Shown piece by piece: positions 1-23,326 of a stretch of 64,000 nucleotides of DNA. This DNA comes from Promethearchaeota archaeon. Its GTDB lineage: Archaea > Asgardarchaeota > Lokiarchaeia > Sigyniarchaeales > SOKP01. Location of the stretch: contig JBHLOG010000002.1 of NCBI GenBank assembly GCA_048940765.1, positions 20,254 through 84,253 of the forward strand, read 5' to 3'. Position numbers and translations under genes: made by a program. A model generated the notes under the pieces. It was not told where the DNA came from. It ran no database searches and saw only the letters and a list, made by a program, of their open reading frames with translations. Every line of letters starts with the position of its first letter. Positions within the stretch are counted from its first letter, which is position 1.

Positions 1-645
1 GATTCAACTGGCAGGAAATTTAATATTAAATTTATTAGAGGAAGAATTTCAGAAGTAGTTGAAGATAAAAAACATAATATAATTGTGAGGGGTGAAGATA
101 CTCTTTTACAGAGATTGATTGAAATTAAGGCAGACTTACTTGTTTTAGCAGTTGGATTAGAACCAAGGCAGGATTCTAATGAAATAACCAGGTTATTTCA
201 CGTACAAAAATCAGAAGATGGATTTTTAATGGAGGCTCATCCCAAACTTCGCCCGGTAGAAACATTAACCGATGGAATTTTCATTGCCGGAGCAGTTCAA
301 GGTCCAAAGGATATTCCTGATGCCATTGCTCAAGCAAAAGCAGCAGCACTTCAAGCTGCATTATTAATGGCTCAACGAAAAGTAGAAATAGATCCTATTT
401 TCTCAATAGTACTCAGTCACAAATGTGCCGGTTGTAAAAGCTGTTTAAGTATTTGCCCCTTTAATGCAATAACCTTTAATGAGTTTAAAAAAACGGCAGA
501 AATAAATAAAGTTTTATGCAAAGGTTGTGGCACATGTGTAGCAGCTTGTCCCTCCTCTGCTATTATCCAAAATCAATTTGGAGATGCTCAATTATTTCCA
601 ATGATCCATAATACTATCCAAGAATTAGATAAAGTAGAGGGGTGA
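1..645 (+). CDS. hdrA: Heterodisulfide reductase subunit A (HdrA), C-terminal part; the 5' end lies upstream of the window
   Basis: Frame 1 is open from base 1 (DSTGRKFNIKFIRGRISEV...) into ORF 85-645. It has a flavoprotein C-terminal segment (GIFIAGAVQGPKDIPDAIAQA) and two CxxCxxCxxxCP ferredoxin motifs. mvhD follows directly. Confidence 0.8.
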   Translation, partial: DSTGRKFNIKFIRGRISEVVEDKKHNIIVRGEDTLLQRLIEIKADLLVLAVGLEPRQDSNEITRLFHVQKSEDGFLMEAHPKLRPVETLTDGIFIAGAVQGPKDIPDAIAQAKAAALQAALLMAQRKVEIDPIFSIVLSHKCAGCKSCLSICPFNAITFNEFKKTAEINKVLCKGCGTCVAACPSSAIIQNQFGDAQLFPMIHNTIQELDKVEG

Positions 646-1118
646 TATCTATTTCTATAATAACTGAACAGTTCAATCCATCAATTTTAGGAATTTTTTG
701 TCATTGGTGTTCATACGCAGGTGCTGATCAAGCTGGAACATCTCGTATACAAAGAAATGCTAACCTTAGAATTATGAGAGTAATGTGTGGAGGAAGAATC
801 GACCCCGAATTTATACTTACTGCATTGAAAGATGGAATTGATGGGATTTTAATATCACATTGTCATCCAGGAGATTGTCATTATGTTGAAGGAAATTATA
901 AAACTATCAGAAGATTACCTTTACTCCACTTGTATTTAAAACAATTTGGAATTAATCCTAAAAGAGTAAAATATGTCTTTATTTCTGCTTCTGAAGGTGC
1001 TAAATTAACTGAAATTGTTAATGAATTTGTTATAGAATTAAAAAATTTAGGGCCAAGCCCTTTAAAGAATAACTTTAAAAAAATACATAAAAGAATTAAA
1101 AAAAATATAAAAATGTGA
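642..1118 (+). CDS. mvhD: Methyl-viologen-reducing hydrogenase delta subunit (MvhD/FlpD domain)
   Basis: FCHWCSYAGADQAGTSR...RVMCGGRIDPEFILTALKDGIDGILISHCHPGDCHY is the MvhD signature. The GTG start overlaps the hdrA TGA (GTGA). Confidence 0.85.
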   Translation: MISISIITEQFNPSILGIFCHWCSYAGADQAGTSRIQRNANLRIMRVMCGGRIDPEFILTALKDGIDGILISHCHPGDCHYVEGNYKTIRRLPLLHLYLKQFGINPKRVKYVFISASEGAKLTEIVNEFVIELKNLGPSPLKNNFKKIHKRIKKNIKM

Positions 1119-1705
1119 AAAAAATGAAAAGCATGATGTTTGAACCTTTACCTGATACTGATTTTTCCATTCATTTAATGGAGGATTTGGAATCAGATGC
1201 ATCAGGAAAAAGTGTCGAAAATTTAGTCAGCCAAATTAGAGATTTGCATGTTAATTTTGCCACAATAGATTTAGGTAATTCTACCCTAAGAGAATTTGAA
1301 AATACGCCTTTAGCAATGTATTTGAAAAAATTAGGGATTCCGTATTTTACAATCGAATTACCCTATTATGTAAAAGATCATTTTACAAAGCAAATCAACG
1401 AAATAAAAGAAAAATACTATGAATTAAAAGCGACATATGACATTTTAGAGGAAAAACAGAGATTAACCGCTCAAGAGCTAAATGGTTTAATCAACTATTA
1501 TTCAAATGAACTTAAAGAAATAAACAATTATATAAACATGGAAATACGAACTAAATCAATCTTCAAAAAATTATTAAGCATTATAAGAGGAAAAGATAAT
1601 ATAAATTTAACATTTTTACATTTTGGAGAGAGAGACTTTTTTATGGGAATATTCAGTCAAACTAAAAGAGTTAATTATAAAAGCCAATTTTTAATTAAAA
1701 AGTGA
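1115..1705 (+). CDS. Hypothetical protein (196 aa) embedded in the hdrA-mvhD operon
   Basis: The ORF overlaps the mvhD stop by 4 nt and ends 7 nt before the polyferredoxin gene. No motif recognised. Confidence 0.5.
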   Translation: MKKMKSMMFEPLPDTDFSIHLMEDLESDASGKSVENLVSQIRDLHVNFATIDLGNSTLREFENTPLAMYLKKLGIPYFTIELPYYVKDHFTKQINEIKEKYYELKATYDILEEKQRLTAQELNGLINYYSNELKEINNYINMEIRTKSIFKKLLSIIRGKDNINLTFLHFGERDFFMGIFSQTKRVNYKSQFLIKK

Positions 1706-1712
1706 TTAGAAT

Positions 1713-2387
1713 TTGTATCCTAGGATTAATAAAATTATAAATAAAGATTTCAATGAGACTGTTTTAAATTTTTTTACTGAAAATTACACGTTTAAGATCG
1801 ATACTGAACGATGTATAGGATGTGGATTATGTATTAAAGCTTGCCCAAACAATGCTTTTTCTCATCCTAATTTAGAAGGTAAGATTAGAGTTAAAACTGA
1901 CGATTTAATACCGGATACCCCAGATCCCCTTATATGTTCATATTGTGGAACTTGTGCATATCTTTGTCCTACATCAGCGATATCGCTAAAATATAATGAT
2001 AAATCAATAAATTTTAGTAATTTAGGTATTATAACCAAGAATGTAGTCCCAAAATTAGAGTATAACCTTGTTAAATGTAAAAAACCACAAATTAAAGCAA
2101 AGATGTATTTAGATGGGAAAATTGATGTAGATTGGGATAATTGCATTTCATGTATGTCATGTGTTGATGTATGTCCTTCAAACGCTTTTTTTAAATTAGA
2201 AAATCAGTTGATTAATGATTCAAAAAATAAGAAAGTATCATTCGATCAAAATAAATGTATTAGCTGTGGGACTTGCGTAAGAGCTTGCTCAAAGAAAGCT
2301 ATTAAATTAACAATAAATAAGGTAAATTATTCAGGTACATATAAAAAAATTTTTTGGGAATCTTTACTAAATCGAATCAATTCATAG
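1713..2387 (+). CDS. Polyferredoxin-like protein, four [4Fe-4S] binding motifs
   Basis: Four motifs are present: CIGCGLCIKACP, CSYCGTCAYLCP, CISCMSCVDVCP and CISCGTCVRACS. The position after hdrA-mvhD resembles MvhB-type polyferredoxins. Confidence 0.75.
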   Translation: MYPRINKIINKDFNETVLNFFTENYTFKIDTERCIGCGLCIKACPNNAFSHPNLEGKIRVKTDDLIPDTPDPLICSYCGTCAYLCPTSAISLKYNDKSINFSNLGIITKNVVPKLEYNLVKCKKPQIKAKMYLDGKIDVDWDNCISCMSCVDVCPSNAFFKLENQLINDSKNKKVSFDQNKCISCGTCVRACSKKAIKLTINKVNYSGTYKKIFWESLLNRINS

Positions 2388-5698: not shown

Positions 5699-6664
5699 TT
5701 AGTGAATACCGCTAAAAAAAATTATTAAACTAAATATTAATAATCCAATAAAAAAGTAGAAAGGATGACCTTTTTCTTCATAAGGTATAACTTCCCTTAC
5801 GATGATATACAGAATCACCCCAGAAATAAAGGATAATAATATATAAATAAATTCTTTTGAAACTGGAAGAAAAATTTCAGATAAGATTCCAATTAATATA
5901 CCCATTAAAGTAGCTGAAGCTAAAAAAATCCTTTTACCGTTATTTTCATGCCATTCAAAGAATTGAATTGAATTTTTGAGTTTAATGTATCTATTTGATA
6001 CAGTAGAAATTGAAGCCTTAAAAAAAGCAAAAAAGAAAAATAAAAGAGCGCTTAACGAGTCGATAACAAGTAAATCAAAAAGTATGATGCCTATTAATAA
6101 ATGATAAAAAAAATTGGTAATCGAATTGAAATTATTTATCCCAATATTAATTTGAGATTCTATATTATACTCTATTTTACTAATTTGAGATTTTAGATTA
6201 CTTTCTTCGTCAATACAATTACATAATCTTTTTACCAAATTTTTAATCATAAAATCTTCCTGCATATTATCATTTAAACTTGATTTAATATACTTTTCTG
6301 TTTCTTTTTCTTTAACTTCTAAAACTTTTTCCATATGACGAAATTCCTTAATTTTTAGATGCTGCTTTGCCTGAATTCTCTTAAAAATTGCTTTCTCCGT
6401 AATATGGATAAAAGAAAATCCTATAAGAATGAATAAGAAATCAATGAATTTGAACTGAGAATTCTGTAAAGCTGTTGTTATTTTAGGTAAGAGAAAGAGG
6501 AAAAAGTAAGATACAGAAACTCCCGCTACAAATGAGGTATAAACTTCTCGTGATTTCCCACTTTTAAAATATGAAGAATAAGTTTCATGATAGTAATCAA
6601 TTATTAAAAATAAAATTCCAAAAACGATTCCATAAATAATTTCAATTTGAAGATTAAAAAACAT
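5699..6664 (-). CDS. Multi-pass membrane protein with a central coiled-coil insert (possibly a ZIP-like metal permease, uncertain)
   Basis: About 7-8 hydrophobic helices with a charged helical insert (res ~95-165). The His/Glu motifs are only weakly ZIP-like. Confidence 0.55.
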   Translation of the reverse strand: MFFNLQIEIIYGIVFGILFLIIDYYHETYSSYFKSGKSREVYTSFVAGVSVSYFFLFLLPKITTALQNSQFKFIDFLFILIGFSFIHITEKAIFKRIQAKQHLKIKEFRHMEKVLEVKEKETEKYIKSSLNDNMQEDFMIKNLVKRLCNCIDEESNLKSQISKIEYNIESQINIGINNFNSITNFFYHLLIGIILFDLLVIDSLSALLFFFFAFFKASISTVSNRYIKLKNSIQFFEWHENNGKRIFLASATLMGILIGILSEIFLPVSKEFIYILLSFISGVILYIIVREVIPYEEKGHPFYFFIGLLIFSLIIFFSGIH

Positions 6665-6727: not shown

Positions 6728-8068
6728 TTAATAGAATTCGCAATCAACCAAAAGTTGAGAAATATCCATAACTTTTATTGGAGAATGATCTTCATTTGCT
6801 ACTTGAAATAAATTGTTCTTACAGAAGACACAAGAACTAACTAACACTTCAGCACTAGTTTCTATCGCTTCTTTTAATCTATCTTCTCTTATTCGTATCA
6901 TACAAGCTCGAGTTTCAGCTAATCTGTCCCTACCCACTTCAACTGCAATATCACCATAAAGTGCCTTCACTCCTCCCCCAGCACCACAACACCAAGCCAT
7001 ATTTCGATTATGCTTCATCTCAAAGAGTTTTATTCCTTCAATCATTCTAATTAGTTCACGTGGTTCTTCATAAACTCCGCAATATCTACCTAAGTGACAT
7101 GGATCATGGTAAGTAATGAGTAGAGGGTCTTCTTTTGAGCGTTTTGTATATCTAATTTTAAGATTTTTTTCTTTTACAGTTTTTAGAACAAATTGGGTAA
7201 GATGATAAAGATCAAATTCAAGTTTATGATCTATTAATCTTGAATATTCGAGATTAAAAGTAGAAAAGCATCCAGAACATGAAAATACAACTTCTTTTAC
7301 TCCACTTTTTTTAACCATTTCATAATTATGTTTTACAAGTTTTAAGGCTTCATCCTCTAATCCTGTTCTAAATAAAACTGATCCGCAACATCTTTCTTCG
7401 GGAAAAAGAACAAATTCAATCCCTAATTTTTCTAAAACTTTGCTTGTTGCCGTGACTAACTCTTTATTTCTATAAGAGGAAGTACAACCAACAAAATAAC
7501 CAACTTTATAAGGTGTTTTTTTTATTGCAATATCAGAAGTATCTTTAGCACGTGAATATGCTTTAGCACCTTCTTCACATGACTGACGCCAATTAAATCT
7601 ATCAAGATGTTTTTCAAGAAAAGGATTATTATTTTCTAATATTGAGTTTTTAAGGATTTTTAACTTTTCTGGTACGGCTCCCTTTTTAATAACTTGTTTA
7701 CGGAAATTTTGAAAAACTTCTAGAGTGTCAACACCAACAGGACAAACCTCGTGACAATTTCCACATAACATACAGCGAAAAACGGAAGGAATGATTTCAT
7801 CTTTATCGAATTTAATATCTTTTCGATCCAAAGCTTTAATAATTCTATTACGACCACCGGCATAATCTGTCTCACTCCAAGACACATTATATACCTTACA
7901 AACATGGCGACAATATCCACAATGGGTACAACGCTCATAAGAATATTTTTCCTTCAGTGTTGAAGAAGCTTCAATAAGATTTTCTCTAGAAGGAGAAATC
8001 AACCCTGCAACAGGGGGACCAGAAGTTATTACATCCTTTAATTCCGACGACTCTTCACTATCATTCAT
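6728..8068 (-). CDS. Fe-S oxidoreductase, GlcF/HdrD-like (2x[4Fe-4S] + two CCG domains)
   Basis: CTHCGYCRHVC and CMLCGNCHEVCP cluster motifs, plus two cysteine-rich CCG-type regions (ERCCGS; YHDPCHLGR...WCCGAGGG). Confidence 0.8.
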   Translation of the reverse strand: MNDSEESSELKDVITSGPPVAGLISPSRENLIEASSTLKEKYSYERCTHCGYCRHVCKVYNVSWSETDYAGGRNRIIKALDRKDIKFDKDEIIPSVFRCMLCGNCHEVCPVGVDTLEVFQNFRKQVIKKGAVPEKLKILKNSILENNNPFLEKHLDRFNWRQSCEEGAKAYSRAKDTSDIAIKKTPYKVGYFVGCTSSYRNKELVTATSKVLEKLGIEFVLFPEERCCGSVLFRTGLEDEALKLVKHNYEMVKKSGVKEVVFSCSGCFSTFNLEYSRLIDHKLEFDLYHLTQFVLKTVKEKNLKIRYTKRSKEDPLLITYHDPCHLGRYCGVYEEPRELIRMIEGIKLFEMKHNRNMAWCCGAGGGVKALYGDIAVEVGRDRLAETRACMIRIREDRLKEAIETSAEVLVSSCVFCKNNLFQVANEDHSPIKVMDISQLLVDCEFY

Positions 8069-8191
8069 GTAATTATATCTCTTATCATTTATTGTTTTTC
8101 AATTGGGAATACTCTTAATTTTTATTAAATTTTATTATTATATTTTATTCTAATTTTCATTGAATTGATTTTTGAATTATTAATTTATTTT

Positions 8192-9571
8192 TTAAAATAA
8201 TTTATACAAGAATTTCGCTGTATTGAATAATAAAGATATCCTCCAGAATTTCATCTTAGCTTCAATTATTCTATATGAATTAAATAAGTGCTTGGGATCC
8301 AATTTATTTTTTAATAGTTTTTTCCTATTTACTTCATCACGTTTATATTTATGTAAATAGAAAGTATTAACAATTCCTATAGTGTAGAGCCTATCTCCTT
8401 GACTAAATACTCGCACTGATAAATCATGTAAAAATGCCTTTACTGCAAAGAATTCCCGAGTTTTATTAATGTCAGTTAAACCGAAAATTTTAACACGAGT
8501 CCATCCTTTCTCTCCTGAAATTGCATATGAAGCAGTTCGAAATTTGTATTTTTTCCTCTTTTTTACATAATGTTCAATAAAAGGCTCTAATCTCTCATCA
8601 GATATCCAGTACTCTTGAAATATTAAATTTCGTGTTGATAATCCAATAGATACCTCAGCATCGCTAATATCTCGCCATTTTTCCTTTAAATAGGAGTTTT
8701 CGATATCAAATGCATTCATTTTTGAAGCTATATTTTTAACCATTGATATGCTTTTTGATGTTTCTTCAGGATCATCATAAAATACTGCCCAGACTAACCA
8801 TTCCTGTTTTGGAAAATTGACATGTGAATATTTTTCAAAATTTCTTTCTGAAATTGAAAGGAAGAATGGCTTATTTGGAACTTCATCTTTAACTTTTGAA
8901 TAAAAGCTAAAAGCTTGGGTGAGAGAATTAAAACCATAACCAATTATTTCTAATGAAGTTTTGAGTGTGGTTACTGATAGTTCAACATTTGCAATAGCAC
9001 CATATATTCCATAAGTACCAACAATATCGTCAAGAGAGATTTCATCGTGAGACTCTCTTGAAATATTGACAATCGTACCGTCGGGTCGAACTAAATCTAG
9101 AGAAATAATTGAATCTTTCATCGAACCATATTTCAAAACACCAATCCCTGCTTTTCCAGGAGTAGCAATAAAACCACTTACACAAGAAGTTTTAAAGCTA
9201 GTTGGAAACACTTTCGGTTCAAGCCCTTGATCTGCAAGTGCTTCTATTAAATTCAACCAAGAAATTCCACTTCCAACCTTAACAGTCATTTTTTCCTTAT
9301 TTATTTCAAGAATTTTATTTATCCTGCGTACATCTATAATAACCCCTCCTTTTGAAGGTGTAGCTGAGGAAAAACAAGAAGTACCAGCAGCTCTAATTGT
9401 AACTGGAATACCTAATTCTCTACATTTTTTTATCGTCAAAGAAAGTTCTTGAGTATTTGCTGGACGAACAATATAACTTGCAAGATATTTTTTCTTAAAT
9501 TTATAATGATAGGATGGTAGTGATGTTAGATCAGCTGAAGCAGATTCGAGTTCATATGGATTAATACTCAC
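8192..9571 (-). CDS. FAD-linked oxidase (GlcD / D-lactate dehydrogenase-like)
   Basis: A PCMH-type FAD-binding N-domain (VRPANTQELSLTIKKCRELGIPVTIRAAGTS...GGVIIDVRRINKILEI). It is adjacent to the GlcF-like gene on the same strand. Confidence 0.8.
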   Translation of the reverse strand: MSINPYELESASADLTSLPSYHYKFKKKYLASYIVRPANTQELSLTIKKCRELGIPVTIRAAGTSCFSSATPSKGGVIIDVRRINKILEINKEKMTVKVGSGISWLNLIEALADQGLEPKVFPTSFKTSCVSGFIATPGKAGIGVLKYGSMKDSIISLDLVRPDGTIVNISRESHDEISLDDIVGTYGIYGAIANVELSVTTLKTSLEIIGYGFNSLTQAFSFYSKVKDEVPNKPFFLSISERNFEKYSHVNFPKQEWLVWAVFYDDPEETSKSISMVKNIASKMNAFDIENSYLKEKWRDISDAEVSIGLSTRNLIFQEYWISDERLEPFIEHYVKKRKKYKFRTASYAISGEKGWTRVKIFGLTDINKTREFFAVKAFLHDLSVRVFSQGDRLYTIGIVNTFYLHKYKRDEVNRKKLLKNKLDPKHLFNSYRIIEAKMKFWRISLLFNTAKFLYKLF

Positions 9572-9696
9572 ATGGTAAGGGGAAATAAATTCTTTAATAG
9601 TATCTAAGAATTTTTTTTTATTTCCTTTTTTAGATTCTCGTTGAATTTTTAATTCTTGATTAGTGGTGGTAGTTGTAATTTTTTATTACCTCCTTT

Positions 9697-10563
9697 TTAT
9701 GTAAATAAAAATCCTGATAAGAAAGCACCCCACCAACAAATTAACGTGATATATCCCGTAACTTTAGCTGGTTTACGCTCTGCAGCAATTCCAAACAACA
9801 TACTTAATAATCCTGTAAGTAAACCTAGACCTCCTAAAATTATATGAGTCCAATGAAAATCTAAAGAAAATGAAACCCAGATAGCAGGATTCTTCCATAT
9901 TAAAGTTAAAACATTTACAAGTGTTAATATCCAAGAAGATCCTGCTAAAATTCCATGAGTTTTAACAAATTTACTTTCATTTATTAATACTAATATTGTC
10001 CCGAGAGTTAGGAAAAGTAACGCTGGTAAGCCAAGAAACATTCCAAAATGATCAAAAATGTTAAAAGGAGCACGTGGAACTATAACACCTCCAACATTAA
10101 CATTAATCCTTTGGTAAGCAAAATTTATTTGACCACTTGCGTCATTCCCTGCAATTATGAAAATTAAGTTATAACTTTCCTCTGCTGGGGCTGTAATATT
10201 AAATTCTACAGTGATTGAATTACTTGATGGATCGAGATCATAAATAGAAGTTTCATTAATTCTTTCAGTAGTTGGTAATATTTCGAAAATATCATAAGAA
10301 GGCTCAAAATTTTGTTCTACCAGTCTTCCTGGAATTACTTGAATGAATACATTTGTACCAGTAGCAGTAACATTAAAAACTAGACTTGTTGAGGGATCTG
10401 TTAGAACATCTCCGGTAATTGTAGACTCAATTGTATATCCTGCTGAATCATGACATAAATCATGAGACATTCCATAGCCAGGTCTACCTGTTGCGTACAT
10501 AATTACCAACATCGGCAAAATAGATATAATTATTAAAAAAACTATAAGGGTTCTCTTATTCAT
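9697..10563 (-). CDS. Membrane protein: signal anchor, HxxCH motif, beta-rich exodomain, C-terminal 4-TM His-bearing domain
   Basis: An N-terminal TM is followed by GYGMSHDLCHDSAG (10450-10464 encodes HDLCH). Many NxT/S sequons. Four C-terminal helices have His at the helix ends (FDHF, KTHG, DFHWTH). It is a paralogue of ORF 16471-17148 in the N-terminal part. Confidence 0.7.
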   Translation of the reverse strand: MNKRTLIVFLIIISILPMLVIMYATGRPGYGMSHDLCHDSAGYTIESTITGDVLTDPSTSLVFNVTATGTNVFIQVIPGRLVEQNFEPSYDIFEILPTTERINETSIYDLDPSSNSITVEFNITAPAEESYNLIFIIAGNDASGQINFAYQRINVNVGGVIVPRAPFNIFDHFGMFLGLPALLFLTLGTILVLINESKFVKTHGILAGSSWILTLVNVLTLIWKNPAIWVSFSLDFHWTHIILGGLGLLTGLLSMLFGIAAERKPAKVTGYITLICWWGAFLSGFLFT

Positions 10564-11051: not shown

Positions 11052-11647
11052 ATGAGGTCAAATAGAAAAATTAAATCTTTATTAATTACATTAATAATAT
11101 TATCATCTATTATGGGATTCGCTTTCGCAAGAACCTCATCCCAAATGCTAGAGACTTAAAAATTTATAAGATTTTTGCATTTGATCCTGTTGGTAATATA
11201 AATTCCTTTCAAGACAATATTACAGTTATAGACACAAACAGTCTAACTTTTTTTAATTTAACGAAATCTGATGAATCTATTATAATAGGGCAATCTATAG
11301 ATATTCAAGTGGAAATTACAGAATTCTCTGATATCAGTAATGTTTTCATAGAATTGGAGAGTACAAACCATTCGATGGTTCATACTATCGGATATACGTA
11401 GGAACATAAAAATTGGATTCTAAAAATTACAGGCGAATTATCCTTTACAATACACGCAAAGGATAACAATAATGTTTGGAATTTAATAGCGGGGACAATT
11501 TTAGTTACAGAGTAATCACCAGATTTAACCAGAATACCGATGTTTAAAATGACTGAAATTTTAGTAATAACTGGATTGATTGGATTAATAACTGCTGGAA
11601 TATTATTGATAATAACAACAACAAAAATCAAAGGATTTTTTGCTTAA
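11052..11647 (+). pseudogene. Decayed gene for a signal-peptide / C-terminally anchored surface protein
   Basis: ATG 11052 gives MRSNRKIKSLLITLIILSSIMGFAFA...ET then TAA. The reading continues in another frame (IYKIFAFDPVGNINSF...) through in-frame TAG (11399) and TAA (11513) to a TM anchor (ILVITGLIGLITAGILLII) and stop at 11647. Confidence 0.55.
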
Positions 11648-11740
11648 TTAATTTTTTCTTATTTTTACTTAATTTAATTTATTGAATCTTTAAATTATCA
11701 AAAAAAATTTTATTTAAAATTTTGAATTTTTTTATTTTAT

Positions 11741-13459
11741 GTGGTTATTATGAAGTTTGAGGAAATAACGCGAAAAAAAATATTTATTATTTATTTAGGA
11801 ATGATTTTTGGATTTTTTGTAGCTCTACCATTAATATTTAACTTAATTGAATACAATTTTAGAGTTCTCCTTATATCAACAATGGGTAATTACATAATCT
11901 TCATTCTTATCATAATTTTGATAGTTGATGCTTTTTATTTGATTTTTAAACGTCAAAATCATTATTTTTTTTCATTTATTAACATGTGGTTAACAATACT
12001 CTTATTTTCACTAATGATATATAGTTTCCTAAATAATATCTATGAAATAGTATATGTTATGAATTACAGCAATTCTACACTTCCACTAATATATAAAATA
12101 GTTGCAATCTGGGCGGGAGAAGAAGGGTCGATTATGACATGGATGGTATTTAATTCTATCATAATAAATTTCTATCGAAATAAGAATCAAAACAAAGATG
12201 ATGTTGTATTTATACGTTCTGTTATTATTTCATTATTTATATCTATAATATTTTTAATTATCTTATTTTCATTAAATCTATTTGAAGTTGATTCACCCCC
12301 CGTTTTTCCTAATGGTCAAGGATTAAACCCATTATTAATATCTCCATTTATGATATGGCACCCGTTCTTTACATTTATTGCTTACGCCATTTTCTTAGTC
12401 CCCTTTACTATTGTAATTGCAGAAACAATTACTCGTAAAAGGAAATTGTTGGGGGAATACCAATTGAATTTTTATAATTTTTCTTTAAAATTTGGATGGC
12501 TAGTTCTCACTTCAGGCATTGGTTTAGGCGCATATTGGGCTAAAATTGCATTAACTCCTTGGGGTAGATATTGGGGTTGGGATCCTGTTGAAACAGTTTC
12601 ACTTATTCCATGGTTTTTAATAACAGCTTTCTTTCACACTATTATCTTCAAAAAGAAAAATCCAATATTAATAAAAATAAATGTGAGTTTGATTTTTGCA
12701 TCAATAGTGTTTTCAACATTGATTACAAGAGGCGGGGGGTTAAATTCTCTTCATGCGTTTACTGGAGGTGCTGAGTTAATTACATGGGTAATAATTTTAG
12801 GTCTTATTTTGGTCTTTCTTTCCCTTTATGTAATCTATATTGTATTAGATTATTCAATGGGAGAGTATCGAAATAAAAAGCTTTTTTTTGATTACTTGAG
12901 TTATTTACTTTTATTTGCTTTAGCTTTGGTGTGTATTTTTGGTCTTTTAATTCCACCATTTACCTTTTTCCTTTCAAATTTTCTCCCAATAAATATTATT
13001 TTAATCGATATAGATTATTTTATCATAACAACCTTAATTTTATCTACAGGTTTAGCTATATCACTTACATTTTGTTCATTATGGGAATATTTCGAGATTA
13101 AGTGGATAGGATTAGTTATACTTATAGGATTTTCAATTCAATCAGTGCTTTCGTTTATACTTGTAATTACCTCTAACATATGGATAAATCCTGTTTTATT
13201 TATTTATTTAATATCATTATTTTCTTCCCTATTCAAATTGGTAAAAAATTTCAATATGAAAAAGGGAGTAAAATACTTTTTCAGGTTGAATTCAAAAACA
13301 ATAATTCATGCAGGGATTTCCTTAATCCTTGCTGGATTTTTAATGAGTTCGAATTATCAAGACTTTTTTTTCATTCCAGGATTCGTACTGCTATTAATAG
13401 GAATAATTCCTTCAATTATTATCACTTTTTTTCCAATGAAAAAAGTAATTGAGGCGTAA
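11741..13459 (+). CDS. ccmF: Cytochrome c maturation protein CcmF (heme lyase component)
   Basis: AIWAGEEGSIMTW, LNPLLISPFMIWHP, the Trp-rich motif WGRYWGWDPVETVSLIPW, and conserved His in AFFHT and NSLHAF. Polytopic membrane protein. Confidence 0.85.
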   Translation: MVIMKFEEITRKKIFIIYLGMIFGFFVALPLIFNLIEYNFRVLLISTMGNYIIFILIIILIVDAFYLIFKRQNHYFFSFINMWLTILLFSLMIYSFLNNIYEIVYVMNYSNSTLPLIYKIVAIWAGEEGSIMTWMVFNSIIINFYRNKNQNKDDVVFIRSVIISLFISIIFLIILFSLNLFEVDSPPVFPNGQGLNPLLISPFMIWHPFFTFIAYAIFLVPFTIVIAETITRKRKLLGEYQLNFYNFSLKFGWLVLTSGIGLGAYWAKIALTPWGRYWGWDPVETVSLIPWFLITAFFHTIIFKKKNPILIKINVSLIFASIVFSTLITRGGGLNSLHAFTGGAELITWVIILGLILVFLSLYVIYIVLDYSMGEYRNKKLFFDYLSYLLLFALALVCIFGLLIPPFTFFLSNFLPINIILIDIDYFIITTLILSTGLAISLTFCSLWEYFEIKWIGLVILIGFSIQSVLSFILVITSNIWINPVLFIYLISLFSSLFKLVKNFNMKKGVKYFFRLNSKTIIHAGISLILAGFLMSSNYQDFFFIPGFVLLLIGIIPSIIITFFPMKKVIEA

Positions 13460-13610
13460 AAATCTATTCAATATCTTATTTTTTAATTTTATTCCATTTT
13501 AAGAATTTATAATTTTTTAACTTAATAAATATATTAAAGCAAAGTTTTGAATAATTAAACACTTATTAATAGTCAATATATAAATAGTTTAAGCTCTCAC
13601 AATTGAGATC

Positions 13611-14324
13611 ATGTTCACATCAAATAACACAATAATAACTTGTAATAATGTCTCAAAACAATTTGGATATTTTTTTGCGTTAAGAAAAATTTCTTTTAAA
13701 ATTAGAGAAAATACGGTTTTTGGAATTGCGGGGGCAAATGGAGCAGGTAAAACAACATTAATTAAGATTTTATCGGGATTGCTCAAACCAACTTTTGGTG
13801 AAATTATACTCAATGGAATGAATTATGAGGATAATTCTGACATTATAAAACAAAATATTGGAATTAATACTGATGAATCTTTTCTATTTCAAGAATTAAC
13901 TATTTTTGAAAATTTAAAATATTATGCTAATTTGCATTTGAATTTCGAGAAAAAGAATCTTGAGACTAAAATTAAGCATTATTGCAATAAATTCAATTTA
14001 ACAGATTGGATCAACGAACCTGTTAGAATTTTATCTCATGGAATGAAACAAAAAGTAGAATTAATTAGAGTCTTAATACATGATCCATCAATTCTATTCT
14101 TGGACGAGCCATTTTCGGGTTTAGATTACAATGCAACCCAAATGTTAATTAATTTTTTTAGAGAAATAAAAAATGATAAAAATATATCGATAATTCTTAC
14201 AACGCATAAAATTGATGTATTCCAGCAACTTTGTGATGAATTAATCATTTTAAAGAAAGGAAGAATCAGTAAAGCCTTTTCACGTGATGAATTAAATAAG
14301 TATGAAATTAAGTCATATTTTTAG
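13611..14324 (+). CDS. ccmA: ABC transporter ATP-binding protein, CcmA-like heme exporter subunit
   Basis: Walker A GANGAGKTT, signature LSHGMKQK, Walker B ILFLDEPFSGLD. Located between ccmF and ccmB. Confidence 0.8.
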   Translation: MFTSNNTIITCNNVSKQFGYFFALRKISFKIRENTVFGIAGANGAGKTTLIKILSGLLKPTFGEIILNGMNYEDNSDIIKQNIGINTDESFLFQELTIFENLKYYANLHLNFEKKNLETKIKHYCNKFNLTDWINEPVRILSHGMKQKVELIRVLIHDPSILFLDEPFSGLDYNATQMLINFFREIKNDKNISIILTTHKIDVFQQLCDELIILKKGRISKAFSRDELNKYEIKSYF

Positions 14325-14333
14325 GGGGTATAT

Positions 14334-15062
14334 TTGTTGAAAAATGAGAAAATAAAATTCAAATCAAAATTAAGATTACTGAAAGTAATATTATCTAAAG
14401 ATATTAAATCAGAACTCCGACAAATTAATGATTTATTTTCAATTTTTCTTTTTGATATAATCTCAATCTTCATATTTTCGTCAGTTTATAATTTCGGAAC
14501 TCAATATCAGAATATGCCGATGGAAATTTTTGTTATTGAAAACTGGCTTATAATTTTTTTTACACTCATTTATATTATGACTAAACTCTTCGTAAAGGAG
14601 AAAGATACTGGAACTTTAGGAGGGCTTATTTCTTCCCCCGCATCAGCAAACTTAATTCTTATTAGTAAAACCATTTTTTGCTTTATCTTATTGAGTTTCG
14701 TTGAAATCATTTTATTTCTTTTCAGTTTTTTTATATCAGTACCATCGATTAGCAATTTTAATGCAAATCAGTTATTGATTTATTTAAGTCTTGGAGTATT
14801 ATTACCAACATTAGATTTATCTATATGCGGGAGCTTTGTTTCTGCTTTTTCGATGTATGTTAAAAATAAATCCTTTATTTTACCAATTTTGTTATTTCCT
14901 TTAATTCTACCAATTATTACTCCTATCATATCGATAAATATAAAAATTTTAGAAGGAGAATTAATATCAAATCTATATTACGAAATACTATTTTTTAGTG
15001 CGCATATAATTCTCATGAGCTCAATTATAGCATTAACTTCGGAAGCTCTTTTGTATGATTAA
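14334..15062 (+). CDS. ccmB: CcmB-like heme exporter permease
   Basis: A ~6-TM, 242-aa protein 9 nt after ccmA. Assigned by size and synteny. Confidence 0.6.
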   Translation: MLKNEKIKFKSKLRLLKVILSKDIKSELRQINDLFSIFLFDIISIFIFSSVYNFGTQYQNMPMEIFVIENWLIIFFTLIYIMTKLFVKEKDTGTLGGLISSPASANLILISKTIFCFILLSFVEIILFLFSFFISVPSISNFNANQLLIYLSLGVLLPTLDLSICGSFVSAFSMYVKNKSFILPILLFPLILPIITPIISINIKILEGELISNLYYEILFFSAHIILMSSIIALTSEALLYD

Positions 15063-15069
15063 ATAAGAT

Positions 15070-15417
15070 CTAACTACATTGTGTAAGAATCTGGTTTGCA
15101 TTTAAAACCAGAGATGAACTAAATACTCCTTTTACAACAACTTGAATTCCATTTTCCATATCAGTTGAAGGAGTTAAACCATTTATATCTATATAAATAC
15201 TATGTCCACTTTCAGTTAAATTAAAATCACTACCAGCAAATCCTTGTACAATACCTATAACTTGAATCTCTTTATTTTCATATTTGGAAGGATTCAAGGC
15301 AACTTGAGAAACTGTGAGATAAGGACGTGCAGTTGATGTAAGCAATGTAATTATAACAATAATTGAGATAATAATTCCTGCGATTGCAATAATTTTTGTT
15401 TTTTTCAAATTCATCAT
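15070..15417 (-). CDS. ccmE: CcmE-like heme chaperone, Cys-type, ending ...LTQCS
   Basis: An N-terminal TM anchor plus an OB-fold-sized domain (IQVIGIVQG...GIQVVVKGVF...LNANQILTQCS). Cys (15076-15078) occupies the position of the heme-binding His of bacterial CcmE. Confidence 0.7.
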   Translation of the reverse strand: MMNLKKTKIIAIAGIIISIIVIITLLTSTARPYLTVSQVALNPSKYENKEIQVIGIVQGFAGSDFNLTESGHSIYIDINGLTPSTDMENGIQVVVKGVFSSSLVLNANQILTQCS

Positions 15418-15421
15418 CTAC

Positions 15422-15574
15422 TTACTTCAAATTTTTCTCCAAATTTTTCATTCTTTTCAATGTTTTTCTTATTCTAAGTTTGGGATATAAAATTAGAATT
15501 ATAATAACTGCCCAAAATAAAATATAACTAATTGTTATTGTTATTAAATCTTGATCAAAATATTGTAATGACAT
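15422..15574 (-). CDS. ccmD: CcmD-like small membrane protein (50 aa), not in the ORF track
   Basis: MSLQYFDQDLITITISYILFWAVIIILILYPKLRIRKTLKRMKNLEKNLK has a single TM plus a basic tail. It starts 5 nt after the ccmC stop and ends 4 nt before the ccmE start, matching the canonical ccmC-D-E order. Confidence 0.5.
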   Translation of the reverse strand: MSLQYFDQDLITITISYILFWAVIIILILYPKLRIRKTLKRMKNLEKNLK

Positions 15575-15579
15575 TTAAA

Positions 15580-16311
15580 TTACTCCTCTATCAACCTTTT
15601 TTGTATAATTTTATCTAGTTTTTCTTTTGCTTTATCTAATTCTCCTAATCTTTGAATAACATAAAAAAATAATATGGTTATTCCAATTAAATTAAATAAC
15701 AACATGACTATTTTCACTGGATCCCAATAAATATTACCAGGCTCTCCAGGAGTTGGATTAATTAGGGGATGCAAGCTTGTAAATATAATTGCCGAGAAAT
15801 AACTTAAGGGAATTGTAGGAAATAAGGCAATACCTAAAATTGAAGATAATTTTGCTCTTTTTTCTTTATCTTCAACCATACTCCTAAAAATTAAATATGC
15901 TAAATAACAAAGAAGTAATATTAAAGTCATAGTCTGTCTACCATCACTCCATTGCCAATAAATATTGTTATAATCTCCAGAAGTAGAATTGTACCATAAA
16001 GATCCAGTAATTAATGTAAATGCAGTAAAAAATACTCCAACTATTATGCTATTGGTGCCCAACCGATTCCATTTTAATTCTCGTTTATTCAGATAGAGAA
16101 TATGAAATAGGAAACTAAGACCGTATGATAAATATGCAAGCCATGCTCCCGAAACATGGTAAAAAAAAATTATATATACTATTCGATTGGGACTTCCCCA
16201 TACAATAAGGTTAAAGGAAGTCAATATTAAAATTAGAAATAAATTAATCACCAAGATTGTCAATGAAATAATTAATAGGAAGTTAGTCCTGAATAATTTT
16301 GGAATATTCAT
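15580..16311 (-). CDS. ccmC: Cytochrome c maturation protein CcmC
   Basis: 243 aa, 6 TM. Conserved His in FFYHVSGAW and TSLHP. The Trp-rich motif is IYWQWSDGRQT. Confidence 0.8.
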   Translation of the reverse strand: MNIPKLFRTNFLLIISLTILVINLFLILILTSFNLIVWGSPNRIVYIIFFYHVSGAWLAYLSYGLSFLFHILYLNKRELKWNRLGTNSIIVGVFFTAFTLITGSLWYNSTSGDYNNIYWQWSDGRQTMTLILLLCYLAYLIFRSMVEDKEKRAKLSSILGIALFPTIPLSYFSAIIFTSLHPLINPTPGEPGNIYWDPVKIVMLLFNLIGITILFFYVIQRLGELDKAKEKLDKIIQKRLIEE

Positions 16312-16470
16312 GATAATATAATAAAATTATAATTCTGATACATTTTAATAAAAATACGAAATTTTCTGTTTATAAGGAGTATTCCTATTTTTCACATTTA
16401 AGACATTTTTTTTAACTTTTAAAATTTAAGATTATAAAAAAAAAATAAAATTAAATTTAGTATTTTGGAT

Positions 16471-17148
16471 TTACAATTCTTTTTTCCTCATTCGCTTTCT
16501 TACTGTTAATATTAAAACAGTTGTTACCGCTACACTGCTACCAATAATGATTGTTAAAATGCCTCCCGAAATAGTATCTGTGCCTGTACCAGTAGTGCCT
16601 GTAACAGTAATCTCGATTAAACTTTCAACATAAGTAATATTATAATAAGATCCATCCGTCTGATTCATTCCTGCTATTGCCACCGCATAAAGATCATATG
16701 TTCCAGCTTTGCTAGGAGCAATAAGGGCAAATTTATTATCATCGTCAGAAGGATCATAAGATCCATAACTATCTACCTGTTCTCGTCTATTTAATGTTTG
16801 GTTAGCAAGAGATGATGTAAATAACCCGTTATCACCTTGATATCCTGGTACGCCTAAAGTGAATCTACCAGCATAAGGAGCTAAATTAGCCTCTGTAAAG
16901 TTAAGGATATCTACTTCCAAGGTAAAATGCTGTAAGGGAGATAAATCTCCAGTCACATTAATAGATAGTACCAAAGTTCCATTTACACTAGCTTTAGTAT
17001 TAGCTGAATTATGACACATACCATGAGTTCCACCTTCTCCATCGTTAATCCATCTATATAGATATTCTTGATATCCCACAGCTGCACCTATAATTCCTAT
17101 AAGTAAGGCTGAAAAAATCAATAGTGAAAGAATTTTAGTTTTTCTCAA
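16471..17148 (-). CDS. Exported, C-terminally anchored protein with an HxxCH motif (candidate non-canonical heme protein)
   Basis: A signal/anchor helix is followed by EGGTHGMCHNSAN (17011-17025 encodes HGMCH). Then comes a beta-rich glycosylatable domain, a TGTGT linker, a TM and a basic tail. It lies upstream of ccmC on the same strand. Confidence 0.7.
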   Translation of the reverse strand: MRKTKILSLLIFSALLIGIIGAAVGYQEYLYRWINDGEGGTHGMCHNSANTKASVNGTLVLSINVTGDLSPLQHFTLEVDILNFTEANLAPYAGRFTLGVPGYQGDNGLFTSSLANQTLNRREQVDSYGSYDPSDDDNKFALIAPSKAGTYDLYAVAIAGMNQTDGSYYNITYVESLIEITVTGTTGTGTDTISGGILTIIIGSSVAVTTVLILTVRKRMRKKEL

Positions 17149-19885: not shown

Positions 19886-21199
19886 ATGGCAGTAAAAGTA
19901 GCTTTTATGCAATTAAGTGACTGTTGGGGCTGTCATCAATCTCTTTTAAACGCTCATTTAGGTTTGTTGCCAGTTCTACCAGCATTAGAGATTGTATATT
20001 GGCCAGCTGTAGTTGATTTTAAACATGATTCATTGAAACAAAGAGACCCAGGTTCAATTTTAGTTGGTTTCATTGAAGGATCTATCCGTACAAATGAAGA
20101 TTATGATAATGTTAAACTGATGAGAGAAAAATGTGCTTTAGTAATTTCTTTTGGTAGCTGTGCCTGCTATGGAAATGTACATGGATTAGCTAATCAATGG
20201 AATATAGAGGAATTAGTAAAGAGAAAATTCTCTCAAGTTGAAAGCATAGCTGATGAGAGTGGTGGAGAACCGACCCTGCATACTCCTGGTTTTAGAGAGA
20301 AGGTTGTCCCTGTTGATGAAGTAATAAATGTTGATGCATATATATCTGGATGTCCACCAAAGCCAGAGCAAATTATTAGTAGTGTCGCATTTTTATTAGG
20401 ACAAAAACCATTTCCCATGAATGATCTTGCATTTTGTAATGATTGTGCAATAAAAAATGATTGTTTATTGGATCATGGAGTAATGTGTTATGGTTCAATT
20501 ACCAGTATCGGTTGTGATTTAAAGTGTACTAGTGACAAAAAACCTTGTGTAGGTTGTTTTGGTCCAGCGAAAACTGTTGATTCAAGAGCAGAAAAATTAA
20601 ACAACATGTCTAAAAATTTGAGTTCAATTAGTCTGGGTGACAAAAAAAATGTATATGAATTTTTAACATTGTTTTTAAATGTTCCTTTAATGGCCGGATT
20701 TGATTTATCTGGAGATATCTTAAAACAAATTAAAAAACATGGAACTCCGGATACTCCATTAGCTAATCTACCTCCAACAACAGAAGAAATTTCTACAAAC
20801 TTATTAGAATTTTTGAAGGAAAATCCTGATTTTCATGATATTTCAAATGTATGCGATACGTGTCCTCGAATTATTGGTAGTAAGTCAACTATGACAAGAG
20901 TCAAAAGAGATTATGAAGGGCTTCCAAATATGGAAGATTGTCTAATTGAACAAGGATATATCTGTATGGGCCCTGTAACTAAAGCTGGCTGCGGTGCTTT
21001 GTGTATAAAGGTTAATGCTCCATGTACTGGTTGTTTTGGTCAAACAGTATGGGGCGTTAATCAAGCAGAAAGGTTCGCTGATACGGTACTCAAACAATTT
21101 AATGTTAGCTTATCAAAAGAAGAATTACTGTCTCAGGTAAAAGATCCAATTGGTACATTTGAAAAATTTACTTTAGCATCAAGAAAAGGAGGTATATAA
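19886..21199 (+). CDS. mvhG: [NiFe]-hydrogenase small subunit (MvhG-like, group 3)
   Basis: N-terminus KVAFMQLSDCWGCHQS, then FGSCACYG and ISGCPP (proximal cluster ligands). Two C-terminal Cys modules each end in PCxGCFG. Confidence 0.85.
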   Translation: MAVKVAFMQLSDCWGCHQSLLNAHLGLLPVLPALEIVYWPAVVDFKHDSLKQRDPGSILVGFIEGSIRTNEDYDNVKLMREKCALVISFGSCACYGNVHGLANQWNIEELVKRKFSQVESIADESGGEPTLHTPGFREKVVPVDEVINVDAYISGCPPKPEQIISSVAFLLGQKPFPMNDLAFCNDCAIKNDCLLDHGVMCYGSITSIGCDLKCTSDKKPCVGCFGPAKTVDSRAEKLNNMSKNLSSISLGDKKNVYEFLTLFLNVPLMAGFDLSGDILKQIKKHGTPDTPLANLPPTTEEISTNLLEFLKENPDFHDISNVCDTCPRIIGSKSTMTRVKRDYEGLPNMEDCLIEQGYICMGPVTKAGCGALCIKVNAPCTGCFGQTVWGVNQAERFADTVLKQFNVSLSKEELLSQVKDPIGTFEKFTLASRKGGI

Positions 21200-21202
21200 A
21201 AA

Positions 21203-22507
21203 ATGGCGAAAGAAATAGAAGTAGAGCCAGTCACTCGATTAGAGGGACATGGTGGTTTAAGATTAGTTTTAGGCGATGATGGAAAAATACAAGATGTTCA
21301 ATTCAATATCACTTCCACAAGATTTTTTGAGAAGTTTCTTGAAGGACGTTATTGCGAGCATATTCCTAGAATAACTCCGAGAATTTGTGGTATATGTCCA
21401 ATTCCTCATCATTTAACTCCAACTAAAGCGGTGGAAGATGCATGGCAGGTTGAAATTCCTACTCCTGCGTATAAATTACGACAATTATTGCAGAATGCTA
21501 AACAATATTCATCACACGCTTTACATTTCTATGCACTTGCTGCTCCTGACTTTTTATTGGGACCTATGGCTGATCCAGCATTAAGAAATGTGGTACATGT
21601 AATTAATCAAATGCCAGATGTAGGTGCAATGGCATTAAAAATGATGGATTTTGGTCAGAAATTATGTGCTGCAGTAGGAGGGAAATCTGTACATCCTATT
21701 TCTGCTATCGTTGGTGGTATGAAAAAGCCTTTAGATGAAGATGTTCGAGATTTGTTTTTAAAACAAATTGCAGATCAGGTTGAATGGACTAAGAAAACCG
21801 TTGATATTGGTTTAAAAGTAGTTGAAGATTATTGGGATGTTGTGGCTAACGTAGGAGTTGTACCCACTTACTATGCTGGTATGACGAAAAATGGAGTTCA
21901 TGACATTTATGATGGAGATCTTCGCATAGTATCTCCAAATGGGGAGAAGTTCGATTATCCACCTCAAAAATATTTGGACGCTCTAGGTGAACATATCCCC
22001 AAGCATTCTTATGCAACTCACATGTACTATAAGCCAGCTGGATATCCTGAGGGAATATATAGAGCAAATACTTTAGCAATGATTAACTGTGCAGATAAGA
22101 TGGCAACTCCTTTAGCAGATGAAGCGTTGCAGGCTATGAGGGCAAAAGTTGGTAACATATCCCATCACACATTCGCATATCATTGGGCTCGATTAATTGA
22201 ATTAGTAGAATCTATTGAAGTAATCGCAACATTACTTCAAGATGATGATATTGTTAATCCTGATTGTAAGACTTTAGATGTACAGCCTAGAGAAGGAAAT
22301 GGTGTTGGTCTCACAGAAGCTCCAAGAGGAATACTCTTATATAATATATGGTCCGATGCTGAAGGAATTTGTAAAAAGGCAAATCTTTTAGTTGCAACAA
22401 ACCATAACATCGCAGGAATTGAAAAGACATTGAAGCATGTCGCTAAGCAAGTTTTTGAGGACAAGGCGCTTGATGGTTTAAAATTACCAGACCCATGGAT
22501 AAAATAA
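21203..22507 (+). CDS. mvhA: [NiFe(Se)]-hydrogenase large subunit (MvhA/VhuA-like), lacking the C-terminal Ni-binding motif
   Basis: RLEGHGG and RICGICPIPHH (N-terminal RxCGxCxxxH Ni ligands). The ORF ends ...LKLPDPWIK without DPCxxCxxH. Confidence 0.9.
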   Translation: MAKEIEVEPVTRLEGHGGLRLVLGDDGKIQDVQFNITSTRFFEKFLEGRYCEHIPRITPRICGICPIPHHLTPTKAVEDAWQVEIPTPAYKLRQLLQNAKQYSSHALHFYALAAPDFLLGPMADPALRNVVHVINQMPDVGAMALKMMDFGQKLCAAVGGKSVHPISAIVGGMKKPLDEDVRDLFLKQIADQVEWTKKTVDIGLKVVEDYWDVVANVGVVPTYYAGMTKNGVHDIYDGDLRIVSPNGEKFDYPPQKYLDALGEHIPKHSYATHMYYKPAGYPEGIYRANTLAMINCADKMATPLADEALQAMRAKVGNISHHTFAYHWARLIELVESIEVIATLLQDDDIVNPDCKTLDVQPREGNGVGLTEAPRGILLYNIWSDAEGICKKANLLVATNHNIAGIEKTLKHVAKQVFEDKALDGLKLPDPWIK

Positions 22508-22549
22508 ATTAAATATAATGAAAATTAAAGAAAGAAGTGAACAAAAAAG

Positions 22550-22699
22550 ATGAGTGATATACCTGAAGGTGTAGTAAATCTCTTAGAAATGGTAGTTCGC
22601 TGTTTTGACTGTTGACTATCATGCGCTGCTCATATAACAGTTGTTGATGAGCGGGGCAAAGAGATATACTCTCGAGAAATGAACGTAGGTTTAGGATGA
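22550..22699 (+). CDS. vhuU: VhuU-like mini-subunit carrying the C-terminal Ni-binding motif with a predicted selenocysteine (in-frame TGA 22613-22615)
   Basis: Reads MSDIPEGVVNLLEMVVRCFDC-TGA-LSCAAHITVVDERGKEIYSREMNVGLG-TGA. With TGA read as Sec, this restores D-x-[C/U]-x-x-C-x-x-H, which is missing from the upstream large subunit. Confidence 0.7.
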
Positions 22700-22750
22700 A
22701 TGTCCAATAAAAATGATTGAAATTGGACATAACTGCCCCTTGCGTGGGGT
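22700..22750 (+). promoter_or_regulatory. Structured 3' region of the vhuU-like gene (candidate SECIS)
   Basis: A 9-bp perfect stem 22700-22708/22722-22730 has a 13-nt loop AAAAATGATTGAA. A CCCC/GGGG hairpin (22736-22739/22746-22749) follows. It sits in an unusually long ~100-nt intra-operon spacer. Confidence 0.3.
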
Positions 22751-23310: not shown

Positions 23311-23326
23311 TTCGAGGGTAAAAAAA

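Follow-up and report, generated by a model that had tools for sequence, protein, structure and literature searches.

Tmc, Hmc and DsrMKJOP of sulfate reducers and HdrDE of Methanosarcina all join a cytoplasmic HdrD-like protein to an integral membrane subunit that bears His residues, and in Tmc, Hmc and Dsr an extracytoplasmic c-type cytochrome completes a route for electrons across the membrane. Membrane cytochromes b are the usual docking partners of HdrD-like proteins, for example in HdrDE, DsrMK, TmcBC and HmcEF. CbcL of Geobacter sulfurreducens fuses a multiheme cytochrome c with nine CxxCH sites to a diheme cytochrome b of the HydC/FdnI family; it takes electrons from menaquinol, passes them toward the cell exterior and has no cytoplasmic HdrD or flavin adenine dinucleotide (FAD) partners. 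HdrD-like proteins are also found paired with D-lactate dehydrogenases, e.g. DVU3027/3028 of Desulfovibrio. Here we describe a three-gene locus in a stretch of 64,000 nucleotides from a Promethearchaeota archaeon (contig JBHLOG010000002.1, positions 20,254 to 84,253; hereafter the window, to which all positions below refer). Gene 1 encodes a protein with an exported domain containing an HxxCH motif and a four-transmembrane (4-TM) bundle, gene 2 a flavoprotein of the FAD_binding_4 family and gene 3 an iron-sulfur (Fe-S) protein with CCG domains. With a probability of roughly 0.55, we read these genes as an Asgard-only operon for a membrane-bound oxidoreductase with a variant c-type cytochrome subunit.

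The HdrD-like protein, the His-bearing membrane subunit and, in comparison with Tmc, Hmc and Dsr, the putative extracytoplasmic c-type heme and the logic of transmembrane electron transfer are shared with Tmc, Hmc, DsrMKJOP and HdrDE. The locus differs from them in that its membrane subunit is not a cytochrome b of the NarI/HdrE/DsrM type, in that the presumed cytochrome c portion and the membrane subunit are a single polypeptide with one HxxCH site, and in having an additional FAD_binding_4 subunit. Gene 1 is like CbcL in placing a probable extracytoplasmic c-heme domain and a His-bearing helical membrane domain in one polypeptide, but it has one HxxCH in place of nine CxxCH sites and no homology between the two was detected. 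As in GlcDEF and the D-lactate dehydrogenase pairs, the FAD_binding_4 gene adjoins a gene with Fer4 and CCG domains; unlike them, the pair is here coupled to a membrane cytochrome-like subunit, and its motifs of the GDGN/GEHG type appear to be replaced.

The three genes form a tight, conserved unit. A scan in which each GTDB species was represented by one genome yielded 27 loci, all in metagenome-assembled genomes of Asgard archaea; 26 of these were full-length, and their neighbourhoods were compared by local tblastn. The preliminary description of this DNA had proposed that the idea of a membrane electron conduit be dropped if the trio were not syntenic in relatives; every one of the 26 full-length loci keeps the 4-TM, FAD_binding_4 and Fe-S/CCG genes in this order on one strand. 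The heme lyase gene ccmF lies upstream in 25 loci and is divergent in 24, the locus with ccmF on the same strand being L017; L027 has only 145 bases of upstream sequence, and L036 showed no ccmF within 7 kb. The single locus of the scan with a 4-TM-only protein has none of these neighbours, and the same is true of other 4-TM-only loci. Six loci, obtained from four homologues and including that of P0177, an orthologue with a canonical CxxCH, all show the 4-TM, FAD_binding_4 and Fer4/CCG genes with ccmF upstream and divergent. Even a remote homologue of Thorarchaeota type (P0228, 395 residues, motif CDSLAGCH) has FAD_binding_4 and CCG genes after it, the gaps being 5 and 12 nucleotides. Across the loci the FAD and Fe-S proteins show 68-88% identity, versus 43-69% for the membrane protein. 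A scan for sigma-70 promoters and hairpin terminators gave the same counts as shuffled sequence, but such a scan is inapplicable to archaea and is silent on transcription units.

The junction between genes 1 and 2 is tighter than it first appeared. The preliminary description gave a gap of 125 nucleotides, but the true gap is about 17, compared with 19-26 in relatives, since the GTG at 9571 is not the start of gene 2. That GTG was rejected as a start because it encodes the conserved Val of SPYHVS. The reading frame is open up to 9682, the resulting extension is homologous to the N-termini of orthologues, and the orthologues start with ATG, GTG or TTG exactly at the window's ATT (9679-9677), which is also ATT in the closest relative, L012. 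A GGAGGT sequence sits 8 nucleotides upstream, and ATT is likely a non-canonical start codon of gene 2 in this Asgard archaeon. The gap between genes 2 and 3 is unlike this junction, being 111-135 nucleotides long and very AT-rich in the window and in L001, L003 and L004; it may contain an internal promoter or processing site.

A search of 5.8 billion proteins returned 155 homologues of gene 1, all from Asgard metagenome-assembled genomes labelled Promethearchaeota, Loki-, Thor-, Hermod-, Hod- or Odinarchaeota, all annotated as hypothetical and none with a Pfam domain; an exhaustive profile search, run against 1.84 billion cluster representatives, yielded no more than 118. The sequence of gene 1 itself, HDLCH, does not have the CxxCH that defines a c-type cytochrome. 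However, the C37-H38 dyad is almost universal across the family, and among 120 close homologues the motif is H-x2-CH in 97 and H-x4-CH in 21, with H34 present in 118 and CxxCH in none. In more distant full-length members this alignment position holds a canonical CxxCH (CNSCH in P0177, CGECH in P0183, CSTCH in P0193 and CGGCH in P0213), and others have Cx4CH, CxCH or a lone CH there. The exodomain also occurs alone, heading proteins of 200-1235 residues that mostly have CxxCH, and the 4-TM bundle occurs without the exodomain, with all four of its His residues kept. In a rough neighbour-joining tree the clade of the window is uniformly of the H type and its sister is the CxxCH protein P0177, while elsewhere the first position of the motif varies. 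A lineage-wide switch from Cys to His was rejected, because this position is labile (C, H or other) throughout the family; the switch holds for the clade of the window and its neighbouring genes, and not for the whole family.

Given that CxxCH occupies this place in orthologues and that gene 1 has a fixed position beside a cytochrome c maturation (Ccm) system, the HxxCH block of gene 1 is very probably a heme site. The same residues could in principle belong to a non-heme metal site, in which Cu, Fe, Ni or Zn would be coordinated by H34, C37 and H38 together with H172, H237 and H240 of the membrane domain. Gene 1 would then encode a sensor, chaperone or transporter of metals, and its neighbours would be functionally unrelated to it. 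Clusters of His and Cys at a membrane surface are typical of metal sites, and a beta-sandwich followed by a transmembrane bundle is an arrangement that we take to resemble CopC-CopD-type proteins. Yet this explanation leaves the canonical CxxCH of the orthologues and the universal linkage to ccm genes and redox partners unaccounted for, and no match to a metal-binding family of Pfam or NCBIfam was found, so that we regard it as very improbable. The gene of a ZIP-like transporter downstream of the trio would also suit a metal site, but it falls outside the conserved neighbourhood of relatives, and a link between it and the trio was rejected on this ground. A cupredoxin or CopC-like metal site is disfavoured as well, by the position of the motif and by the CxxCH orthologues.

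The predicted structure of gene 1 agrees with most of what had been proposed from the reading frame alone. With residues counted from the start codon, the open reading frame and its HxxCH block lie where the preliminary description put them, and the beta-rich extracytoplasmic domain and four C-terminal helices that it proposed both appear in the AlphaFold2 models. The model of the full protein (mean predicted local distance difference test score, pLDDT, of 87.2, from an alignment of 97 homologues) has a hydrophobic N-terminal helix at residues 3-23, the motif in a poorly defined segment, and a beta-sandwich at residues 44-157 (mean pLDDT 87); the C-terminal helices span residues 178-194, 196-224, 234-259 and 263-287 in this model and in one of the transmembrane part only. 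The motif is predicted to be extracytoplasmic, since Lys/Arg residues and the hydrophobic anchor precede residues 34-38, and this topology is supported by Lys/Arg in the predicted inside loops and by conserved N-glycosylation sequons in the exodomain, where F63, N64, F121, N122 and T124 are nearly invariant. In a Foldseek search the complete model matched generic Ig-like sandwiches only, and sequence searches of Pfam, NCBIfam and the Protein Data Bank (PDB) with gene 1 gave no significant match. The exodomain region does produce weak, repeated matches to the NCBIfam 'choice-of-anchor V' domain NF041895 (E = 0.006 for the window protein and 1.6e-5 for the CxxCH orthologue P0177), but every score is 16-25 bits, below the 42-bit cut-off.

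Gene 1 lies beside a complete set of ccmABCDEF genes, which together with a second HxxCH protein occupies a region (11741-17148) that the preliminary description did not mention. Compared with the Escherichia coli proteins, CcmF keeps H173, H261, H303 and H491 and the WWD motif (WGxxWxWDPVE), and CcmC keeps H60, H184 and WxWD. CcmE has Cys114 at the place of E. coli His130 and stops one residue later, so that it lacks the Tyr of the CxxxY motif; this ending is kept in three genomes, those of the window, L001 (3617-3955) and L003 (4385-4735). Neither ccmG nor ccmH was seen in the cluster, and by its gene content the cluster is an archaeal variant of System I without CcmH. The archaeal variant described by Allen et al. 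(2006, cited in PMC9012536) comprises CcmABCEF with a Cys-type CcmE and without CcmH. The cluster of the window agrees with it in gene set, in the Cys that replaces His130 of CcmE, in having no ccmH nearby and in the His residues kept by CcmF and CcmC, but differs in the missing Tyr of CcmE and in apparent clients that have HxxCH and not CxxCH.

Since gene 1 is back-to-back with ccmF in 24 of the 26 loci, its product might instead serve the maturation machinery. The HxxCH-4TM protein, together with the FAD and Fe-S proteins, would then send reductant across the membrane to Ccm and might keep the heme iron or the Cys of the apoprotein reduced, replacing the functions of CcmG, CcmH and CcdA. CCG domains typically carry out thiol/disulfide chemistry, as is established for HdrB, which would suit such an accessory. 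So would the lack of ccmG and ccmH in the cluster and the general absence of CcmH from archaeal System I (PMC9012536). Against it, cytochromes c are matured in other archaea without such a module. The exodomain is homologous to other client-like HxxCH proteins and so looks like a client and not like a part of the machine, it has one conserved Cys and not the Cys pair of thiol relays, and the operon of Thorarchaeota type has no ccm genes within 8 kb on either side. We therefore consider a role in maturation unlikely.

The second HxxCH protein in the ccm region, of 225 residues, shows 24% identity to the exodomain of gene 1 and belongs to an Asgard-only family of 55 in which C45 and H46 are invariant. 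It and its paralogues in L001 and L003 (~215-225 residues) end in IPGF/ISGG, a hydrophobic transmembrane helix and an RKR tail, an ending that looks like a PGF-CTERM (archaeosortase) sorting signal and would imply display at the cell surface. We scanned all the loci obtained for open reading frames that have a signal anchor and, at 20-60 residues from the start, a CH dyad. The H-type loci contain 63 such frames, all with H-x2-4-CH and none with CxxCH: the family genes, proteins of ~215-230 residues and repeat-rich proteins of 800-1513 residues. The neighbours in the C-type loci (L005/6 and L010/11) have CxxCH. The change from CxxCH thus extends to the full complement of apparent Ccm clients in this clade, which speaks for a site that remains functional and is accepted by the local Ccm system. 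The mitochondrial cytochromes c and c1 of Euglenozoa, with a single-Cys (A/F)xxCH site, have likewise lost the first Cys of CxxCH throughout a lineage and kept the CH dyad. They have no recognisable Ccm or other known maturation system, whereas here CcmABCDEF adjoins the genes and the replacement is specifically His.

Between gene 1 and ccmF lies a pseudogene remnant of a repeat-rich HxxCH surface protein that is intact, at 955 residues, in L012. The remnant shows 48% identity over 165 residues to the L012 protein (tblastn) and keeps the signal peptide and the last repeat with the C-terminal anchor, but has suffered a frameshift and a stop, and the part with the heme site and ~750 residues have been deleted.

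The membrane domain is conserved as well. H172, H203, H237 and H240 are invariant, as are H34, C37 and H38, in 33 diverse homologues; a broader set of 51 retains H172, H203 and H240 in 50 members each and H237 in 39 (~77%), and several Gly, T214, N217 and W277 are also near-universal. The preliminary description, for which a lack of conservation of these His residues would have been a refutation, had located them at helix boundaries in FDHF (H172), KTHG (H203) and DFHWTH (H237 and H240), where they are indeed at or near helix ends. In the model of the transmembrane part (pLDDT 89.3, predicted TM-score 0.81), H172 immediately precedes helix 1, and helix 3 has H237 as its 4th and H240 as its 7th residue, all three on the predicted outer side; H203, residue 8 of helix 2, is on the inner side. 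A single protomer could thus provide a bis-His site near the outer face, but only one His near the inner face. With three outer His and one inner, two classical bis-His hemes are impossible in one protomer, and a heme on the inner side would have to draw a ligand from a partner subunit or a second protomer, unless a different carrier is used.

This arrangement does not bear out the bis-His b-heme pattern of which the preliminary description had been reminded. For the diheme cytochromes b of the NarI/HdrE/DsrM, FdnI/HydC and b561 types one would expect a family match, a fold match and two bis-His pairs at opposite faces, and the 4-TM domain has none of these. Sub-threshold Pfam matches to DUF420 occur in 11 of 33 members (best E = 0.011) and to cytochrome b561 in 5 of 33 (best E = 0.11), a PDB profile search with the 4-TM domain gave nothing relevant, and Foldseek with the transmembrane model returned generic four-helix bundles only (best E = 0.36). 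Assignment to the b561, NarI or FdnI cytochromes was rejected on the last ground, PsrC being matched with TMq 0.55 and E = 0.72. Stand-alone 4-TM His modules (P0199-type; L007-L009 and L038) have two to three extra helices upstream and no exodomain; they reach 62% identity to the transmembrane domain of the window protein and lie in unrelated neighbourhoods, so the module has been reused.

It is possible, then, that only the exodomain is a heme c protein and that the 4-TM bundle is a heme-free anchor, a docking platform or a site for a lipophilic carrier, the FAD and Fe-S pair being a dehydrogenase that uses another acceptor. The lack of similarity to known cytochromes b and the placement of the His residues at interfaces, not paired at equal depth, are what this explanation would lead one to expect, and in Thorarchaeota FAD and CCG pairs also occur without this membrane gene. 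It is harder to reconcile with the tight and universal coupling of the operon and with H172, H203, H240 and many Gly that are near-universal in very divergent members, including 4-TM-only proteins. The conserved His and Gly indicate a probable cofactor site and not a passive anchor, and a bundle that merely anchors a cytochrome seems to us rather unlikely.

For genes 2 and 3, Pfam bears out the domains that had been assigned to them at first: FAD_binding_4 (PF01565, E = 2.8e-33) in gene 2, and Fer4_8 (E = 5e-12) with two CCG domains (E = 5e-32) in gene 3, where two CxxCxxCxxxC motifs can be read in the translation. The further proposal of a GlcD/GlcF or D-lactate dehydrogenase pairing stands at the level of the superfamily, but equivalog scores are far below their cut-offs and the catalytic motifs appear to be absent. 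The nearest solved relatives of gene 2 in the PDB are glycolate oxidase, LctD and LDHD (E = 1e-17 to 1e-21), yet its score with the GlcD equivalog TIGR00387 is 108.7 bits versus a cut-off of 567.9, and Pfam finds no FAD-oxidase_C in it. GDGN and EHG, from the catalytic and metal-binding motifs H.GDGN.H and GEHG of LctD-type enzymes, are absent from its sequence; in a HMMER alignment to LctD, of low confidence in this part, the corresponding sites fall on ISGEKGWTR and GDRLYTIG. All NCBIfam matches of gene 3 score below the cut-offs of their families, the best being TfrB (190.5 bits, cut-off 385), followed by LdhH (138), GlpC (120), TmcB (96), GlcF (94.7, cut-off 333) and HmcF (73), and its PDB matches are an 'iron-sulfur-binding reductase' (9ojn_A) and HdrB. 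Judging by these matches, gene 3 is an HdrD-like protein of the HdrD/TmcB/HmcF/GlpC/GlcF class. That the cytoplasmic reaction is the oxidation of a 2-hydroxyacid is a guess.

A possible mode of action for the oxidoreductase is as follows. Subunit 1 would be exported with its N-terminal domain outside as a variant c-type cytochrome domain, to which the neighbouring Ccm system (System I) would attach heme at Cys37, with His38 as an axial ligand and His34 in place of the first Cys of CxxCH. The His residues of the four-helix bundle would hold at least one further redox cofactor, most likely heme b, and the flavoprotein and the HdrD-like protein would dock on the cytoplasmic side. Electrons could then pass, in either direction, between a cytoplasmic substrate and the extracytoplasmic heme, and might go on from it to further HxxCH proteins of the surface, for example the anchored one of 225 residues. 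The membrane electron conduit of the preliminary description is supported in that the trio and the His residues are conserved and the HxxCH block is very probably a heme site, while its b-heme module and its 2-hydroxyacid substrate have gained no support.

Several observations weigh against an oxidoreductase of this kind. Single-Cys cytochromes are very poor substrates of E. coli Ccm (PMC3268396). The two-His-per-helix pattern of diheme cytochromes b is absent from the 4-TM domain, for which comparisons by sequence, profile and fold gave no significant match among known membrane cytochromes b; H237 is not universal (39/51); and 4-TM-only paralogues are found away from FAD/CCG genes.

A broader reading, which we offer only tentatively, is that Lokiarchaeia-type Asgard archaea possess hidden hemoproteins with H-x2-4-C-H sites that are matured by Ccm and act as an extracellular electron route wired to the FAD/Fe-S enzyme. 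The heme would be held by a single thioether bond or by a double link through His and Cys, and the surface-anchored members together with the gene 1 subunit might allow hydrogen-independent electron transfer to syntrophic partners.

The features of the locus and its surroundings are listed in Table 1. The window has a G+C content of ~27% and encodes Asgard signature proteins, among them a RagA/Arf-type GTPase and leucine-rich repeat proteins. The island of ccm and HxxCH genes is flanked on both sides by Hdr and Mvh genes, and the same flanks are found in the relative L001, which makes the region as a whole a conserved neighbourhood of energy metabolism. Two divergent paralogues of 187 and 190 residues, encoded between the ccm cluster and the genes for Mvh and Hdr, may be regulators that sense redox state or metals. 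Some AsnC-like proteins are subunits of siroheme decarboxylase. Farther along, an amino-acid permease is divided between two adjacent open reading frames, probably a frameshifted or interrupted gene.

Table 1. Positions of the three-gene locus, the ccm cluster and other features in the window
Feature	Position	Strand	Remarks
HdrA (fragment), MvhD and polyferredoxin genes	85-2387	+	flank of the ccm/HxxCH island
ZIP-like transporter gene	5699-6664		downstream of gene 3
Gene 3	6728-8068	-	HdrD-like Fe-S protein; 2x[4Fe-4S] motifs and two CCG domains
Gene 2-gene 3 gap	8069-8191		AT-rich
Gene 2	8192-9679	-	FAD_binding_4 (VAO/PCMH superfamily) flavoprotein, ~495 residues; probable ATT start at 9677-9679; first assigned as 8192-9571
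Gene 1-gene 2 gap	9680-9696	-	17 nucleotides; contains GGAGGT (9688-9693)
Gene 1	9697-10563	-	membrane protein of 288 residues: signal anchor, H-x2-C-H site, Ig-like exodomain, His-bearing 4-TM bundle
4-TM bundle, residues 170-288	9700-10056	-	from the AlphaFold2 model of the transmembrane part
His codons of the 4-TM bundle	H172 10048-10050; H203 9955-9957; H237 9853-9855; H240 9844-9846	-
Extracytoplasmic Ig-like beta-sandwich, residues 44-157	10093-10434	-	conserved FN[IV]T sequons; AlphaFold2 secondary structure
HDLCH (H34-x2-C37-H38)	10450-10464	-	putative single-Cys heme c attachment site
Pseudogene remnant	11052-11650	+	from a repeat-rich HxxCH surface protein of ~955 residues, intact in L012
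ccmF (heme lyase)	11741-13459	+	divergent from and back-to-back with gene 1; Pfam, NCBIfam
ccmA	13611-14324	+	ABC_tran Pfam match
ccmB	14334-15062	+	CcmB Pfam match
ccmE	15070-15417	-	product ends in QCS
ccmD-like open reading frame	15422-15574	-	50 residues
ccmC	15580-16311	-	
Complete ccmABCDEF set	11741-16311		
Second HxxCH protein	16471-17148	-	225 residues: signal anchor, THGMCH, beta-sandwich, PGF-CTERM-like C-terminal anchor
Paralogue of 187 residues	17931-18494	-	N-terminal AsnC-type helix-turn-helix, Cys-rich C-terminus (C-x3-C-x2-C ... C-x2-C)
Paralogue of 190 residues	18891-19463	+	as above
MvhG, MvhA, HdrC and HdrB genes	19886-24205	+	flank of the ccm/HxxCH island
Amino-acid permease, N-terminal half of the Pfam model	41457-42131	+	
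Amino-acid permease, C-terminal half of the Pfam model	42195-42764	+	

Among the papers that could be searched there was no description of this family, of HxxCH as a heme site or of Ccm clients in Asgard archaea; a candidate for a prior description (10.1101/2022.01.26.477801) was dismissed, as it concerns a different lineage. Screens for cytochromes count CXXCH motifs (for an example of the method see PMC9723726), and the HxxCH family is therefore invisible to them. Asgard archaea are routinely reported to be without cytochromes because such screens count CxxCH motifs, and models of Asgard metabolism and of eukaryogenesis assume an exchange of hydrogen, formate or small molecules between these archaea and their partners. 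If heme is bound at these sites, many Asgard genomes encode extracytoplasmic redox proteins together with a membrane complex that moves electrons across the membrane, and direct electron transfer would become a testable mode of syntrophy. These archaea would also provide a natural System I that handles sites without the first Cys and is paired with an unusually truncated CcmE of the Cys type, which would bear on how Ccm recognizes its clients and attaches heme to them.

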